Origin: an uncultured Gemmatimonadales bacterium
GTDB lineage: Bacteria > Gemmatimonadota > Gemmatimonadetes > Gemmatimonadales > GWC2-71-9
NCBI GenBank assembly: GCA_963748815.1
Contig: CAVVKJ010000008.1
Span: 64,001-128,000, forward strand
Length of the DNA stretch: 64,000 nucleotides
Direction of reading: 5' to 3'
Positions 44,898 through 51,496 of the stretch are shown piece by piece. The translations under genes and the position numbers were made by a program. The notes beneath the pieces were generated by a model, which did not search any database, was not told where the DNA came from, and saw nothing but the letters and a program-made list of their open reading frames with translations. How positions within the stretch are numbered: the first letter of the stretch is position 1; each line of letters opens with the position of its first letter.

Positions 44898-45509
44898 ATG
44901 ACTACAACTCAGAATCTCGTGGTACGAAACTTCAACGATCGCGCCGAGGGCCTCGCGCATTTCATGCTGCGGGCCGGAGCGGCGCCGCGATTCATTGCGA
45001 TCGACGACCAGGCCGGTTGCCCGATGGATACCGCCCTCGCCGCCCTCGAGTGGACCCGGGTGGTCGGCATCCTCCGGGATGACGACCTCCTGCACGCCGG
45101 CCGGCTGACCAGCGAAACGGCCGCCGCCGTCGTGGAGCGCAAGTCCGATCGGGGTCCGCAGTTCGTCTACCTCGGCCCGCGCCTCGACGCCCCCCCCATG
45201 GACGTCTTCGAAGGCGCGGTCCTGTACGACGAGCCGGGCGTCAAGGCGGTGGAGTTCAACCAGCGGGCGCACGCCCTCGCGCACTTCCTGCGGGCCACCT
45301 CCGGCGTCGGCGCACTGATGGCGCTCCTCGGCCGGCGCGCCCCCGAGCTGCGGCACCTGCGGCGGTGGCTCGGTCCCATCCTCCAGGAACTCGACGCGCC
45401 CCGCCCCCTCATGGCCGGATGGTTTGCCGCCTCGGCGGGCGGCTGCCTCTTCGCCCTTCCCGAGGGCGACGTCGTTTGCCGGTACATCGAAGTGGGCCTC
45501 GACCCGTGA
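44898..45509 (+). CDS. Hypothetical protein with internal duplication
   Basis: FNDRAEGLAHFMLRA and FNQRAHALAHFLRA; good codon bias. Confidence 0.75.
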   Translation: MTTTQNLVVRNFNDRAEGLAHFMLRAGAAPRFIAIDDQAGCPMDTALAALEWTRVVGILRDDDLLHAGRLTSETAAAVVERKSDRGPQFVYLGPRLDAPPMDVFEGAVLYDEPGVKAVEFNQRAHALAHFLRATSGVGALMALLGRRAPELRHLRRWLGPILQELDAPRPLMAGWFAASAGGCLFALPEGDVVCRYIEVGLDP

Positions 45510-46075
45510 GGCGCCTCCTGGTCCTCGCCCTCTGGGCCTGCGCGCTCGCCGCTCCCCTCGCGGCCCAGGTCGGCCGGGAACACTTCCCTGTGGCGGAGGA
45601 CACCGCGCTCGACGCCGCGCACGCCGTGCAGCAGTCGGCGTTCCTCGTGCTGCGCGACTCGACGGCGTCGATCAGCGCCGCCGGCGCCAAGCTGATGAGT
45701 GACCTGACGCCCACCAGCTCCGTGGTCTGGATGCGGGCGCGCGCCGGTGCGGTCGCCGCTGCCTGTGCCCGCTCCCAGGCCCCCCTCGCGCACGCGAGAA
45801 CGGTCACGGAGCAGGCGGCGTGGCCCAACAAGAACCAGAAGAAGGCCCAGTCCGACCTGCTCAAGGAGATGACGAGCTTCACGCGGGAGCTGACGAAGTG
45901 CCAGGAAGAGTGGACCGTCCTGGCCGCCGACACCAGCCAGACCACGTTGCGCGAAAAGAGCCCGCACGAGATGCAGAAGCTGAATGTCGAGTTGGACAAG
46001 TTCAACCGCTCCGCGCGGACGTACCTTCAGTACATCAGCATCAAACTCCCCCCGCCCGGCAAGGCAGCCCCCTGA
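45506..46075 (+). CDS. Secreted alpha-helical hypothetical protein
   Basis: GTGA overlap; signal peptide MRRLLVLALWACALAAPLAAQ. Confidence 0.72.
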   Translation: MRRLLVLALWACALAAPLAAQVGREHFPVAEDTALDAAHAVQQSAFLVLRDSTASISAAGAKLMSDLTPTSSVVWMRARAGAVAAACARSQAPLAHARTVTEQAAWPNKNQKKAQSDLLKEMTSFTRELTKCQEEWTVLAADTSQTTLREKSPHEMQKLNVELDKFNRSARTYLQYISIKLPPPGKAAP

Positions 46076-46111
46076 GATCGCCCCCATTCCCTCAACCAGG
46101 GGATGGGGATT

Positions 46112-46195
46112 TGTGGATACACATTTCCACATTGGGTGGACAAGCCTGTTACAGGGCTGTCCAGCATCGGTTTATGCGTCCACATTCACCCCACA
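46112..46195. promoter_or_regulatory. Cluster of degenerate DnaA-box-like 9-mers
   Basis: tgtggatac (46112), atttccaca (46123), ggtggacaa (46135), gcgtccaca (46176), caccccaca (46187) versus TTWTNCACA, in a lower-GC island. Confidence 0.5.
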
Positions 46196-46260
46196 TGAAA
46201 TCGCGTAACCCGAATAAATACAGGCACTTGCGAGATTTTCACCGCGCCCTAGCTTAGGGG

Positions 46261-46620
46261 AGCATCTGGACAGGCTGGACTGGCGCTCTCAGGGCGCCCG
46301 GATGGCCGATTCAGGTGAGTTCGGACCGGAGGAGCAGGGGAGGGGACCGATGCTGTAATGGCGCGGTTGCCGATGAGCCTGGACCAAGCCGGCCGAACGG
46401 GTGGAGCCAGTCGCGCGCTCTGCCCACCCCGATCTGGCGCCTCGGGGTGCCGTGCGAAGGGACGGTCCGCGACCCGACCCGACTCGCAGCGCTCGCAACG
46501 ACGACCTCGGCCGGCCACTGCGCTGGCCGGGGCCATGACCGAAGGGGCTCGGCCCCGACGGGTCATTGTGTGAAGCGGCCGCCCGGTGAAGAACCGGGCG
46601 GCCGCTTCTGCTTTGCTTTC
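46261..46620 (+). ncRNA. Candidate structured ncRNA or small-ORF transcript of unknown class
   Basis: Promoter-like TTGCGA-N16-TAGCTT (46228-46255); many hairpins; SD + ATG-CTG-TAA overlapping a 71-codon rare-codon ORF (46358..46573); terminator. Confidence 0.5.
46572..46620 (+). terminator. Intrinsic terminator (16-bp stem)
   Basis: gaagcggccgcccggt-gaaga-accgggcggccgcttc followed by tgctttgctttc; the U-rich side is on +. Confidence 0.8.
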
Positions 46621-46632
46621 ACGACCTCTCCC

Positions 46633-47610
46633 TCACCCGCCCCAGTCGCTCCGGCCGCGGTAAGCACGGCGGCGGTCGAGTTGCCAGAGGGTCCGGGCGC
46701 TCACCAGGCTCTCTCCCTCGAAATTTCCCTCGTCCGCCAGGGCATCGGCCATGCTCGCCGTCTTGGCGCTCGCGTTGTCGGCGTAGTGCAGCACCTCGGC
46801 CTCGAGCGTCATCGGCGCCACGGCGGCCCCGTACTCCAGCCGGCCGTGATGGGACAGCACGAGGTGCTGCAGGATGGCGAGTTCCTGATCGGTGCACGGC
46901 ATCGGGTGGGCCGCACGCACCGCGCGGTCGAGCATGAGCGCGCCGAGGACGACGTGGCCGTGCAGCGTGCCAGCCTCCGACATCGTGAACAGCCCCCCCT
47001 CCCAGCCGTAGGACTCGAGCTTGCCGATGTCGTGCAGCAGGACGCCGGCCAGGACGAGGTCCTGCTCGGCGCGGCAGACCCGCGCGATGGCCCGGGCGAT
47101 GGTGGCGACCTCGGCGGTGTGCTTGAGGAGTCCACCCAGCACGGCGTGGTGCCCGGCGAGGCTGGCGGGACAGGCCTCGTACCGCAGCCGAAAATCGTCG
47201 TCGGCATAGAAGAGATCGAGCGTGGCGGCCAACCGCGGCCGGACGATTTCGGCGCGCCACCCGTCGAGCGTCTTCCAGTAGGGCGCGGGGTCGCCGATGG
47301 AGGGCACCAGTTGGCCCAGATCGACCGCCCCCTTCGGCAGCGGGCGAAGCGACGTGACCTTCAGTTGCCGATGCCCGCGGTAGAGCGCGATTTCGCCGAT
47401 GACCTGCGCCACGTCGCCGGGCGCCAGCCCCGCGATCTTCGGCTGGTCCTCCTGCCAGAACGGGGCGCTCGGCAGCCGGCCACTCGCGTTGCCGAAGGTG
47501 AGGATGGTATGCGGGGTGTCGCCCCCCCGGCGCTCGACCTCCAGGATCAGCAGCGGATCCTGGATGCGCTGGCCGGTGGACAGGCCCGGCAGGTCGGTGG
47601 GGTGGCTCAT
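46633..47610 (-). CDS. YhaM/Cbf1-like 3'-5' exoribonuclease (OB fold + HD domain)
   Basis: OB-like N-terminus; PASLAGHHAVLGGLLKHT, LLHDIGK, LSHHGRLEYG, EAEVLHYAD. Confidence 0.88.
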   Translation of the reverse strand: MSHPTDLPGLSTGQRIQDPLLILEVERRGGDTPHTILTFGNASGRLPSAPFWQEDQPKIAGLAPGDVAQVIGEIALYRGHRQLKVTSLRPLPKGAVDLGQLVPSIGDPAPYWKTLDGWRAEIVRPRLAATLDLFYADDDFRLRYEACPASLAGHHAVLGGLLKHTAEVATIARAIARVCRAEQDLVLAGVLLHDIGKLESYGWEGGLFTMSEAGTLHGHVVLGALMLDRAVRAAHPMPCTDQELAILQHLVLSHHGRLEYGAAVAPMTLEAEVLHYADNASAKTASMADALADEGNFEGESLVSARTLWQLDRRRAYRGRSDWGG

Positions 47611-47712
47611 CAGGTCGGCTCGGTCCGGGAGAAGGGAACGGAGCAAAGGTAACAGCCTCCGCCAGATCGGAGCTCCTTGCCTCGGTTCGTGTCGCGGATA
47701 CCTTCTCCCCCC

Positions 47713-48114
47713 ATGGACGCCCTCCCCCTGCTCCTCCTGACGATGGACCCCGACGGCGCCCCACGCCTCGCCGCCGCCCTGGTGGCCGCCGGACATCAGG
47801 TCATCCCCGCCAGAACCGGCGAGGCGGCGGCGGCGGCGCTCGGCGTGCCCGGGCTCGGCGGCGTGGTCGTGGACCTCGCGCTGCCCGGACTCGATCTGGC
47901 CGCCCTCCGCCGTTCACTCACGCCGGCCAGCCCGGTTCCTCCCGACTCGCTCGCGGACGCCGAGCGGCGACACATTGCCCTGGCGCTGGGCCACACCAGG
48001 GGGAACAAGCGCCAGGCGGCGCTGCTGCTCGGCATTTCGCGCTCCACGCTGCTGCACAAGGTCCGGCGCTATGGCCTCGAGGCGGTCGCGGTTCGGGGAC
48101 GATCGGGCGGGTAG
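47713..48114 (+). CDS. Degenerate receiver + Fis-type HTH protein (no AAA+ domain)
   Basis: VVDLALPGLD; SLADAERRHI..AL..TRGNKRQAALLLGISRSTL. Confidence 0.8.
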   Translation: MDALPLLLLTMDPDGAPRLAAALVAAGHQVIPARTGEAAAAALGVPGLGGVVVDLALPGLDLAALRRSLTPASPVPPDSLADAERRHIALALGHTRGNKRQAALLLGISRSTLLHKVRRYGLEAVAVRGRSGG

Positions 48115-48234
48115 GGGGCTGGCCCGGAGTCGGGAGGACCTCCGGACCCGGCCTCCGCCGGTGCCGTCTTCCGGCGTCGACCGTGCTGAAGCTCTCCAGG
48201 CCCCCGCTCCACTCCGCTCACCGCTCCGCTTCGC

Positions 48235-48666
48235 TCATCGCTCGATCCGCACCCGCCCGAGACGGGAGATGACCACCCGTCGCATCGCCGATCCCTTGGT
48301 GAGGGTCCACGACGCGTTGGAAAACCCCGCGGTGACACCCGTGGGGGAAAAGGTCAGGGTGCGCGCCGGACCGCTCATGGCAACGGCGAAATGGCCTGGG
48401 CCGGGCATGCTCCACCGCCGCGCCGGCCCGCCCGGTTCGATCGCGTCCATGGTGAGGGAGTCCGCCGCGATATGCAGCACCGTGATCCGTGATTCAACGA
48501 CCGCGGCGACCCGCGCCCGCGCGTGCGCCCCGGCGATTTCCCCGGCGGCATGTTCGACCGCCAGGGTGTCGAGCGGTTCGGTGAGCCGGGGCGCGGCGAT
48601 GCCCAGCACCAGCGCCACGAGAGCGATGGCAACGAGGAGTTCGGGGAGGGTGGCGCCGCGGTTCAT
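48235..48666 (-). CDS. FimT/GspH-like minor pilin
   Basis: Prepilin motif RG-ATLPELLVAIALV; C-terminal RVVISRLGRVR. Confidence 0.82.
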   Translation of the reverse strand: MNRGATLPELLVAIALVALVLGIAAPRLTEPLDTLAVEHAAGEIAGAHARARVAAVVESRITVLHIAADSLTMDAIEPGGPARRWSMPGPGHFAVAMSGPARTLTFSPTGVTAGFSNASWTLTKGSAMRRVVISRLGRVRIER

Positions 48667-48806
48667 GGGACACGATAGGTTCCCCCCGGCGGCGTGCGTC
48701 ATCCTGGGGCGGCCAACGTCATCCTTCCCGCGCCGGCGGGCCTTGCTCCCGCCCTGCTCCGGGGGCATACTGCGAGTCCGCTCTCACCCCCCAAGGATCG
48801 GCCCGT

Positions 48807-49211
48807 ATGACACCACGCGTGCTCGTCGTGGACGATGAGCCTGCCATCCGCCATGCGGTGGGTCGGCTCTTCCGACGCGAGGGGTGGGAGGTCGTCACCG
48901 CGGCTACGGCGGGCGAGGCGCTCGCGGAGCTGGAAACGGCGGCGGCGCACGCGGTGCTTCTGGATTATCATCTACCCGGCATGTCGGGCGCGGCGCTCGG
49001 CGCCGAGATCGTGGCGCGCTGGCCCGCGCTCACCGGGCGGCTGGTCTTCGTGAGCGGGGATCCGCACCTGAGTGCCGACGCCTTCCCGGCGGCCTGCCGC
49101 GGGGCGCGGCTGATTCCAAAGCCGTTCGACCTCCTCGAGCTCGCGGCGGCGGTGCGGGAAATGCTCGCCGCGCCAGGCGCCCCTACAAATTCCTCCGGGA
49201 ACTCTGCATGA
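48807..49211 (+). CDS. Single-domain response regulator
   Basis: VLVVDDE, LLDYHLPGMSG, VSG, KPF. Confidence 0.9.
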   Translation: MTPRVLVVDDEPAIRHAVGRLFRREGWEVVTAATAGEALAELETAAAHAVLLDYHLPGMSGAALGAEIVARWPALTGRLVFVSGDPHLSADAFPAACRGARLIPKPFDLLELAAAVREMLAAPGAPTNSSGNSA

Positions 49212-49864
49212 CACTTCCTTCCGGGCTGGCCTCGCTGGCGGGCGCCGACCCGCTGGTGGCCCTCCGTGCCTATCGTGCGCTGGCTCCCTGGAGCCTGCGG
49301 GATCTCGCGTCGCTGGCCGGCGCCTTGCTGGAGGCGTCGAACATCGTCCCGGTCAATGCGGCGGCGCGCGCCCTGCCGGGGGAGCGGACGATCCGGTTCT
49401 ACGTGGCCCGCGGCCTGGTGAGCCCGCCGGAGGGGCGGGGCACGGCGGCCACCTACGGCTACCGCCACTTGCTGCAGGTGCTCGTGATCAAGTTGCGGCA
49501 GATGGAAGGCGCGACGCTCGATTCGCTCGGCAAGGAACTGGCGGAGCTGGCCGGCGACATGATGGAGCGGCGGGTCGCGAGCGCGCTCGGACCGGCGCTC
49601 CCGCCGCCGGAGCGGGTGCTCGCCGCGCCGGGAACGCACGAACCGCGGGGGCGCGTGGCGCGCGCCATGCAGTCGGCGTTGCCGGTACCCGGGCAGCCCC
49701 CGCGACCCACGACCTGCCGGCGGCTGCCGTGCGGGCCGGGGGTGGAGCTCCTCCTCGACGAGCGGCATCCCGCCCTCCAGGTACCGGGGGCCGAAGGGGC
49801 CCTGGCCCGGGACATCGCGCGGCTGCTCGAACAGGCGGGAACCGGCGCGCCGACCACGCCTTGA
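49208..49864 (+). CDS. MerR-like HTH transcriptional regulator
   Basis: ERTIRFYVARGLVSPP.GRGTAATYGYRHLLQ; ATGA overlap. Confidence 0.8.
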   Translation: MTLPSGLASLAGADPLVALRAYRALAPWSLRDLASLAGALLEASNIVPVNAAARALPGERTIRFYVARGLVSPPEGRGTAATYGYRHLLQVLVIKLRQMEGATLDSLGKELAELAGDMMERRVASALGPALPPPERVLAAPGTHEPRGRVARAMQSALPVPGQPPRPTTCRRLPCGPGVELLLDERHPALQVPGAEGALARDIARLLEQAGTGAPTTP

Positions 49865-49892
49865 GTCCGTTTCTTCCTCCCCGGAGTCTGGC

Positions 49893-50465
49893 ATGACGAC
49901 GATTCTCTTCTTCGTGGTACTCGCGGCGATCCTCCTGTGGGGAGTCGGCGCGTACAACGCCCTCATCAGCCTGAAGAACCAGGTGCAGAACGCCTGGACG
50001 CAGATCGACGTGCAGCTCAAGCGGCGGCACGACCTGATTCCCAACCTGGTGAACACGGTCAAGGGGGCGATGGACTACGAGCGCGGCACGATGGAGGCCG
50101 TCATCAACGCGCGGGCCAAGGCGATGGGCGCGCAGGGCGTGAAGGCCACCGCCGAGGCCGAGGGGCAGCTGACGCAGGCGCTCGGCAAGCTCTTCGCGCT
50201 GATGGAGAACTATCCCGACCTCAAGGCCACCGCCAACGTGCTCCAGCTCCAGGAGGAGTTGACCAGCACAGAAAACCGGATCGGGTTCTCGCGGCAGCAC
50301 TACAACGACGTCGCGACCGAGTACAACACGAAGCAGCAGCAGTTCCCCGTCAACCTCGTGGCGGGCATCGCGAAGGCGACCCCGGCGGATCTCTGGGTCA
50401 TTGCGGATGACAGGGAGCGCGCCGTGCCGACGGTCGACCTGTCCACCCGTCCTCCGGGCGCGTGA
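49893..50465 (+). CDS. lemA: LemA family protein
   Basis: NAWTQIDVQLKRRHDLIPNLV, ENYPDLKA, TENRI. Confidence 0.95.
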   Translation: MTTILFFVVLAAILLWGVGAYNALISLKNQVQNAWTQIDVQLKRRHDLIPNLVNTVKGAMDYERGTMEAVINARAKAMGAQGVKATAEAEGQLTQALGKLFALMENYPDLKATANVLQLQEELTSTENRIGFSRQHYNDVATEYNTKQQQFPVNLVAGIAKATPADLWVIADDRERAVPTVDLSTRPPGA

Positions 50466-51496
50466 GCGAGGCCAATCTCTTCGCCCAGCAGGCGGCCAAC
50501 CGCCGACGGTCGGCCTGGTTGGTCGCCGGCTTCGTGTTGTTCTTCGCCTGGATCGGGTTCGGCGGTGACTACGCCTTCTACCTCCTCACCGCCGGCGCCC
50601 CGGCCGGCGCGTACCGCCACGTCGTCCCCTTCATCGGCCTGCTGACGACCGCGGCGGCGGCCGGCCTCTGCTATTTCTCCTGGAAGACCGGTCCCCGACG
50701 CGTCCTGCTCGCGGCAGGGGCGTGGGAAATCGTGACGCCCGCGTCGCCGGCGCACCTGCAGCTCATGAACGTGACCGAGGAGATGGCGATCGCGGCCGGG
50801 CTGCCGAAGCCCACGGTCTGGGTTGTGCCGGACCCGGACCTCAACGCGTTCGCGACCGGCCACGACGCGCGGCACGCCAGCATCGCCGTCACGGAGGGGC
50901 TGCTGGCCGCGCTCGATCGCGATGAGCTGCAAGGGGTGGTCGCGCACGAGATGTCCCACATCCAGAACGACGACGTGAAGCTGATGACGCTGCTGGCGGG
51001 GATGCTGGGGGCGGTCGCGCTGCTGTCCGACGGGATCGGCCGCTACCTGCGGATGGGGGGGCGGATGGGCGGGTCGTCGCGGAGCGGTGGGGGCCGGAGC
51101 GGCGGGAAGGGGGGTAATCCCCTGGGCGCGGTGCTGCTGGTGCTCTGGGTCTTCACGCTGCTGATCGCCCCGGTCGTGACCCGGCTCCTGGCGATGGCGG
51201 TGAGCCGGAAGCGGGAATACCTCGCGGACGCGAGCGCGGCGCAGCTGACCCGGCACCCGGAGGCGCTCGCCCGTGCGCTCGAAAAACTCGACGCGGCGTC
51301 GGCGCCGACCCGGAGCATCACGCAGGGGGCGGCCCACCTGTGCATCGTGGATCCCGCCGAGCGGCGGTTCAGCGAGCGGGAAGGCATCGTCGGAGACGTC
51401 TTCGCCTCCCACCCGCCGATCCGGCTCCGGGTGGCCCGCCTCAAGGCGATGGCCTTCCAGCAGGCGAAGCGTGAGGCGGGAGTGCTGCCCGCCTAG
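50462..51496 (+). CDS. htpX: M48 family zinc metalloprotease (HtpX-like)
   Basis: NAFATG, AHEMSH, SRKREYLAD, SHPP. Confidence 0.9.
   Translation: MSEANLFAQQAANRRRSAWLVAGFVLFFAWIGFGGDYAFYLLTAGAPAGAYRHVVPFIGLLTTAAAAGLCYFSWKTGPRRVLLAAGAWEIVTPASPAHLQLMNVTEEMAIAAGLPKPTVWVVPDPDLNAFATGHDARHASIAVTEGLLAALDRDELQGVVAHEMSHIQNDDVKLMTLLAGMLGAVALLSDGIGRYLRMGGRMGGSSRSGGGRSGGKGGNPLGAVLLVLWVFTLLIAPVVTRLLAMAVSRKREYLADASAAQLTRHPEALARALEKLDAASAPTRSITQGAAHLCIVDPAERRFSEREGIVGDVFASHPPIRLRVARLKAMAFQQAKREAGVLPA

Follow-up and report, generated by a model that had tools for sequence, protein, structure and literature searches.

A stretch of intergenic DNA of this uncultured Gemmatimonadales bacterium raises the question of what it encodes: a structured RNA, a small peptide, or both. 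An earlier note, made from the letters of the window alone (the window being the whole 64,000-nucleotide stretch that was analysed), had put forward an undescribed structured RNA with a start-stop mini-ORF and possibly a dual RNA/peptide function. The features found are collected in Table 1.

Table 1 Features of the locus and its neighbours, in window coordinates.
Feature	Position	Strand	Remarks
203-aa conserved hypothetical protein	44898..45509	+	near-constant neighbour of the main copy; candidate non-obligate partner
Five TCCACA/TGTGGA (DnaA-box-like) sites	46112..46196	.	upstream of the promoter
Operator-like motif, putative	46205..46231	+	overlaps the -35; in 85/87 homologs; IHF-like in some relatives
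Promoter, sigma-70-type	46228..46255	+	-35 TTGCGA, N16, -10 TAGCTT; hexamers conserved
Non-coding RNA	46261..46612	+	about 352 nt; both ends inferred from promoter and terminator
P1, variable 5' hairpin	46263..46317	+	dispensable; 110/112 cells paired within the genus
P2 arm with kink-turn	46320..46397	+	G46340.A46376, A46341.G46375, bulge 46372-46374
Constant core, about 95 nt	46400..46493	+	P3 46400-46424, P4 46425-46449, P5/P6 46453-46488
PK1 kissing loop	46410-46415 with 46468-46473	+	
PK2	46436-46440 with 46489-46493	+	
3' domain	46494..46570	+	P7 46494-46502 with 46562-46570 (closing), P8 46505-46532, shortened P9
Intrinsic terminator	46572..46619	+	16-bp stem 46572-46608, weak U-tract
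YhaM-like HD-domain nuclease gene	46633..47694	-	convergent; frequent, not constant neighbour; also in family f2

A self-contained transcription unit

We conclude that the intergenic unit is almost certainly a genuine gene for a structured non-coding RNA that Rfam does not cover. The promoter hexamers that the earlier note had pointed out are present and are kept in place in the homologs, where TTGCGN-N16-TAnnnT is conserved; the letters of the spacer vary and its length is fixed (16 nt in 111 of the 123 distinct full-length copies). The promoter scores below the sigma-70 threshold of the scanner, yet its position is conserved among homologs. The 16-bp terminator also lies on the plus strand as described, though its U-tract is weak, and relatives carry a covarying terminator hairpin in the matching position. 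A conserved promoter and terminator of its own support the proposal that the unit is transcribed separately, and the 364-nt stretch folds with z = -5.06 against 100 shuffles.

Evidence of a transcript comes from public sequencing runs: 24 runs from 20 studies contain part of the 64-kb stretch and 21 of them are recorded as RNA, the runs having been chosen for containing this stretch and their contigs giving neither strand, ends nor level. Contigs from the RNA libraries, with six of the 24 runs serving as evidence, cover the RNA and not its flanks. In the four runs examined they pile up over 46274-46514, including a 207-nt contig over 46274-46480 in run X1 and a 198-nt contig over 46285-46482 in run X3, both with zero differences, and the flanking genes are represented by a few short, diverged pieces. 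The tmRNA locus, used as a control, gives an equally confined pattern in four runs that partly overlap the first set. Confinement of this kind speaks against carried-over DNA and is in keeping with a stable, abundant RNA. Over the 3' 110 nt, contig cover is sparse at 82% likeness, which counts neither for nor against expression.

The search of Rfam that had been suggested leaves the claim of novelty standing. Rfam 15 scans of the region (E up to 5) and of 10 diverse homologous loci (E up to 1) returned hairpin-level noise and nothing near a gathering score, which, together with a covarying core, supports the proposed undescribed structured RNA. It had also been said not to be tmRNA, RNase P or SRP; each of these was found once above its cut-off on other contigs, and ARAGORN reports nothing within the window.

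A structured domain followed by a terminator might also be a cis-acting riboswitch or attenuator of the downstream gene. The next gene, however, is convergent here and varies among relatives, no conserved antiterminator pairing is seen, and the unit is inverted en bloc in some genomes, all of which makes this reading very improbable.

Fold of the RNA and the peptide reading

Both proposed reading frames do occur in the source sequence, downstream of a purine-rich stretch: ATG-CTG-TAA (46350-46358) overlaps a 71-codon ORF with six CGA codons, as described, and a dual-function RNA would use one or both. Their conservation argues otherwise. What had been taken for a strong Shine-Dalgarno sequence belongs to a conserved kink-turn helix, of which it forms one strand; the mini-ORF keeps its start and stop in 5 of 17 genus rows and in none of the 13 rows from other genera; and the 71-aa ORF, which hangs on a one-base difference from most congeners, has its start in 7 of 17 genus rows, mostly with another frame downstream, and no match in Pfam. 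The coding test that had been suggested gives substitution rates of 0.08/0.13/0.12 by codon position, with no third-position excess, as compared with 0.08/0.06/0.35 and 0.04/0.03/0.36 in two flanking genes. None of the tests made here points to the suggested contact with ribosomes. The dual RNA/peptide reading is already refuted as a conserved feature, and we give practically no credence to an RNA that also works through either ORF.

The consensus fold consists of domains strung linearly; from 51 full-length copies RNAalifold derives 80 pairs, and 68 of these show compensatory change. The 5' hairpin P1 is missing from core-only and paralogous forms. The stems of the P2 arm covary, and the kink-turn core pattern, called with the K-turn consensus, is present in 47 of the 51 aligned full-length copies by alignment column count and in 55 of 104 by a strict regular expression. 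Other genera have a multibranched 3' domain that exceeds the one here by about 70 nt. In the longer relatives GAA stands opposite GGUA (35 of 51 aligned copies), and at metagenome loci the long form accompanies the core in 74 of 80 cases, the remaining six being cut by contig ends.

In the core, 39 pairs are paired in 98.2% of cells and 18 of them show double-sided change (76 sequences), far above slid controls, and an unbiased mutual-information scan puts the core pairs first. The covariance model was fitted on the nested pairs alone, with the pseudoknots left out. PK1 and PK2 by themselves are 98.6% paired, with double-sided change at 5 of 11 pairs in a set of 70 sequences that includes paralogs; three covarying pairs of that set belong to PK2. 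PK1 is invariant in the 76-sequence set partly because the search pattern demanded it, and after divergent and paralogous copies were added its outer pair reads GC in 44, AU in 18 and CG in 1 of the 70. Changes in this outer pair often coincide with changes in the pair that closes the P6 loop (A2 columns 22, 82, 90 and 92, window 46410, 46465, 46473 and 46474), a hint at a possible stack, triple or register shift. Three main-locus copies (L212:2582-2695, L214:2512-2619 and L210:2514-2609) retain PK2 and P4 intact but have a partly degenerate PK1, possibly reflecting decay or relaxed function in some lineages.

The stacked hairpins of the earlier note stood in part. The pairing caccccga/tcggggtg holds in 126 of 128 cells within the genus and 101 of 104 outside it. 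Three others were not borne out: catctgg/ccggatg is paired in 53 of 112 cells, catctgg pairing instead with tcaggtg (110 of 112), while ccgattca/tgagttcgg, paired in 33 of 93 cells outside the genus, and gggtgg/ccaccc, paired in 48 of 78, give way to P2a (53 of 60) and P3 (102 of 104). Both pseudoknots had been overlooked.

RNA length is 420-433 nt in most relatives, about 352 nt in the source genus and about 180 nt in core-only forms. Core-only and arm-deleted forms show that the K-turn arm and the 3' multibranch domain are dispensable, and natural truncations down to about 180 nt mark out the smallest core on which probing or cryo-EM could be done.

Alternatively, the core could be a new kind of ribozyme that the arms stabilise from the periphery. 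It is a compact double-pseudoknot structure of near-fixed length with many invariant positions, core-only forms persist, and RNA-processing genes (YhaM-like nuclease, RtcB, beta-CASP) lie beside some copies. No Rfam ribozyme matches it, however, a unit with its own promoter and terminator does not obviously need self-cleavage, no joints are listed in the RNA-library contigs examined, and many genomes have lost or relocated the nuclease gene; we regard catalysis as unlikely.

Range, neighbours and extra copies

A search for homologs across phyla had been proposed as a check, and it returned homologs in two Gemmatimonadales families, with no true match in the other families searched. BLAST finds the element in 16 of 16 same-genus and 35 of 36 same-family genomes. 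A first covariance model (R1) matches 71 of 72 genomes of the RNA's own family (f1), 2 of 2 of the sister family (f3) and 0 of 29 in eight further families. Single weak R1 matches in families f2 (1 of 31, E 0.07) and f7 (1 of 16, E 0.003) were rejected as coding-like DNA lacking the core, and they are gone with the broader model, R2. This second model matches 30 of 30 genomes in f1 and 0 of 121 elsewhere in the class; at YhaM-like nuclease loci it finds the RNA at 5 of 5 in f3 and, with filters off, at none of 10 in f2.

These distribution figures are samples, in which "not found" does not equal "absent"; among other phyla the RNA was found in 0 of 5 genomes, a sample too small to show absence. 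The family tallies (BLAST, covariance models, 6S and the 203-aa protein) include the unpublished genomes G030, G099, G134 and G294, and locus L158 (G099) contributes to the locus-level counts; the claims do not hang on these genomes alone. When 9 of the genome collection's 64 parts were scanned with a pattern, 63 of the 120 matches were discarded as chance before counting, and the 57 that passed the core filter are all titled Gemmatimonadota, mostly Gemmatimonadales. The results show a narrow range within which retention is near-universal, in two Gemmatimonadales families.

The most faithful neighbour is the gene for the 203-aa protein, which lies within 1.6 kb of the RNA at 29 of 30 and 29 of 29 loci in two sets and stays next to it where the RNA is inverted. 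The protein is found in 118 of 125 f1 genomes, 3 of 3 in f3 and 0 of 172 in other families. The RNA is nevertheless present in four of five genomes without a match to the protein, so shared ancestry and synteny may account for the link. The protein is acidic (pI 5.7) and is modelled confidently (pLDDT 83) as a soluble alpha/beta fold; it has no match in Pfam, NCBIfam, PDB sequences, Atlas or Foldseek, its best VIA match (Z 5.1 over 56 residues) is within background, and its 136 cluster representatives are mostly fragments. An apparent internal two-fold repeat and invariant D, H, E and R residues are also seen in it, and these residues could form an active or binding site. In some genera only, a predicted secreted protein of 189 aa that belongs to no known family (window 45506-46075, plus strand) lies between the 203-aa gene and the RNA.

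Two or three copies of the RNA are present in 18 of 71 f1 genomes. One group of extra copies has a sigma-70 promoter with an inverted box module; in a second group TTCAY elements replace the -35. At 7 of 10 second-group loci the neighbours are PRT, Usp, CBS, RtcB, HPF/S30AE, BON or M50-CBS genes, a figure given with no random-locus comparison and for genomes that are related, not independent. HPF/S30AE adjoins 2 of 20 extra copies, and no integrase or transposase family was found in the 60 scanned of the 87 ORFs around extra copies. We take these neighbour families to resemble dormancy (DosR) regulons. A literature search linking them to the DosR regulon found no paper, and the genes of that regulon are mostly listed as "unknown" (PMC7801807).

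Upstream DNA, function and relation to known RNAs

The DNA upstream of the promoter shows the appearance of DnaA-box-like sites in this lineage. The array contains the genome's highest-scoring 150-bp windows (2 of 63,086, both here), and at least four box sites occur in 90 of 107 homolog promoters as against 0 of 105 and 0 of 106 control stretches, with a motif set that was picked after sight of this site. A perfect match to the IHF consensus is present in 27 of 111 promoters, and the source copy has two mismatches. A TAA-N19-TT(A/G) inverted repeat like the one over the promoter recurs at about 17 AT-rich sites on nine contigs of the source genome (for example C9:122282 and C10:1164352).

An origin of replication within the array region was rejected as the main reading, since origin hallmarks are found between dnaA and dnaN. 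That interval (C19, about 112400-112650; locus L154, about 2500-2760) has TCCACA-type boxes, an AT-rich tract and DnaA-trio-like CTA repeats preceded by a tandem box like that of the array, and is the likely oriC of the source genome; its layout recurs in 4 of 5 other genomes checked. On contig C8 the cumulative GC skew dips to a shallow minimum at window 46050-51000 (110-115 kb), a weak signal. An 878-aa frame with two Bac_DnaA-like ATPase domains was also noticed at C10:583983-585611 (minus strand; locus L155) and in five relatives.

The boxes might titrate or reset DnaA, with the RNA acting on DnaA or on initiation, in a replication-control unit like the datA or DARS of E. coli. The genome's densest box cluster does lie directly upstream of the RNA, and in four of five near-complete genomes the main copy shares a contig with dnaA and is 40, 69, 134 and 315 kb from it, pointing away, so that it is origin-proximal in 4 of the 4 genomes where this can be read. 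The datA locus likewise consists of DnaA boxes and one IHF site and is controlled by transcription (PMC10950094), and, for the upstream DNA only, the two share clustered DnaA-like boxes, an IHF-like site, an origin-proximal position and adjoining transcription of a stable RNA. Unlike datA, the putative boxes here lie upstream of the promoter, and the IHF match is partial. The extra copies are divided, one class retaining the inverted box module and another being box-free yet intact in fold. The imperfect IHF site of the source copy also weighs against a datA-like unit, as do the two HU/IHF-family genes of the source genome, which both score under the NCBIfam cut-offs, the weakness of the C8 skew minimum and the origin hallmarks on C19, and we consider such a unit improbable.

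In many relatives the P2 arm carries a palindromic side element. A perfect palindrome of at least 8 nt is present in 63 of 241 copies, as compared with 5.5% of shuffles, and its centre alternates among GAUC, AGCU, GUAC, ACGU and UCGA. The other 178 copies, the source copy included, have no 8-nt palindrome, and in the source copy GACCAAG stands in its place. A switching palindrome of this kind was the criterion for intermolecular pairing in OLE RNA (bioRxiv 10.1101/2024.12.08.627333).

For the function of the RNA we give about an even chance to an abundant protein-binding scaffold that works in trans and whose level is tied to growth state. The core would be the working unit, as suggested by the core-only forms that persist at the ancestral locus, and an L7Ae-family protein may recognise the K-turn. 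Two copies could pair through the palindromic side loop that many relatives carry, an ability presumably lost with the loop in the source genus. Through the DnaA-like boxes, judged from their sequence, the main copy might follow the replication cycle, and the extra copies would answer to another regulator under stress. The analogy with raiA and OLE RNAs suggests that the complex could act as cells change between growth and dormancy. An L7Ae-family gene is present once in 24 of 24 f1 and 9 of 12 f3 genomes; against the scaffold reading, such genes are also found in 23 of 25 f2 genomes that lack the RNA, the palindrome occurs in a minority of copies, and the 203-aa neighbour is acidic and non-obligate.

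A broader proposal is doubtful: a new large RNA class whose core links replication to dormancy, with a main copy driven by DnaA boxes, stress-rewired duplicates in islands of hibernation genes, and a catalyst or dimerising scaffold acting on the initiation or translation machinery. To our knowledge, few classes of large, highly structured bacterial RNAs exist, and the solved ones are catalysts or core machinery. This RNA offers unusually clean comparative support and a signal in many environmental RNA libraries.

6S RNA (RF00013) is likewise an abundant stand-alone RNA with its own promoter and terminator; unlike it, the RNA described here has no single rod with a central bubble and no match to RF00013. 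It was rejected as the "missing 6S" of the lineage, as the source genome carries a separate, divergent 6S-like RNA outside the window (C10, about 1044135-1044305, minus strand), a rod with a central bubble, promoter and terminator that is alignable and syntenic with weak RF00013 matches in f2. None of 44 f1 genomes gave an RF00013 match, which suggests that the 6S model of Rfam does not detect this lineage. HEARO/OMEGA was discarded as well, with no Rfam match and no IscB/IsrB or transposase Pfam match nearby (60 of the 87 ORFs around extra copies scanned). The nanocage RNAs GOLLD and ROOL share ornate, multi-domain architecture and kissing loops with our RNA, which differs in being much shorter, in its fixed chromosomal locus, in having no Rfam match and in giving no match on viral contigs with the one pattern used.

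The RNA might instead be a very divergent relative within a class already described (raiA motif, OLE, 6S/Ms1 or HEARO): the two pseudoknots, variable periphery and minimal form recall raiA RNA (PMC12968392), and the K-turn and palindromic loop recall OLE. Neither the source copy nor the 10 diverse homologs match Rfam, however, the raiA motif (RF03072) gives nothing at the locus and a single 12.7-bit match elsewhere against a cut-off of 101.3, a stem closing the 5' and 3' ends is absent, and the 6S-like RNA is a separate gene; we think such a relationship quite improbable, if somewhat less so than a cis-acting element. A literature search on the taxon and its non-coding RNAs, with most subscription papers outside its coverage, found no description. 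By the searches made here, the RNA matches no catalogued family.

The closest comparisons are with OLE and raiA RNAs. With OLE (bioRxiv 10.1101/2024.12.08.627333) the RNA shares a kink-turn, a palindromic loop of switching centre and a neighbour gene of matching distribution. It differs from OLE in being shorter, in having no match in Rfam and in its palindrome, found in a minority of copies and missing in the source copy; no Pfam or NCBIfam match among the neighbours corresponds to the membrane protein OapA, and the constant neighbour is a soluble, non-obligate alpha/beta protein. The raiA RNA belongs to a different phylum and lies between comFC and raiA, peaking at entry into stationary phase (PMC10861870). 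The main locus described here has other neighbours, and its RNA has no P1 closing the 5' and 3' ends, no UUAGA(C/A)GUAA linker, and a PK1 that is a loop-loop kiss instead of a loop-linker pairing. On the other hand, some extra copies adjoin phosphoribosyltransferase and HPF/S30AE genes, and both RNAs are self-standing, abundant orphans in which variable peripheral stems surround a compact core with two pseudoknots and of which a minimal form exists (PMC10861870, PMC12968392).
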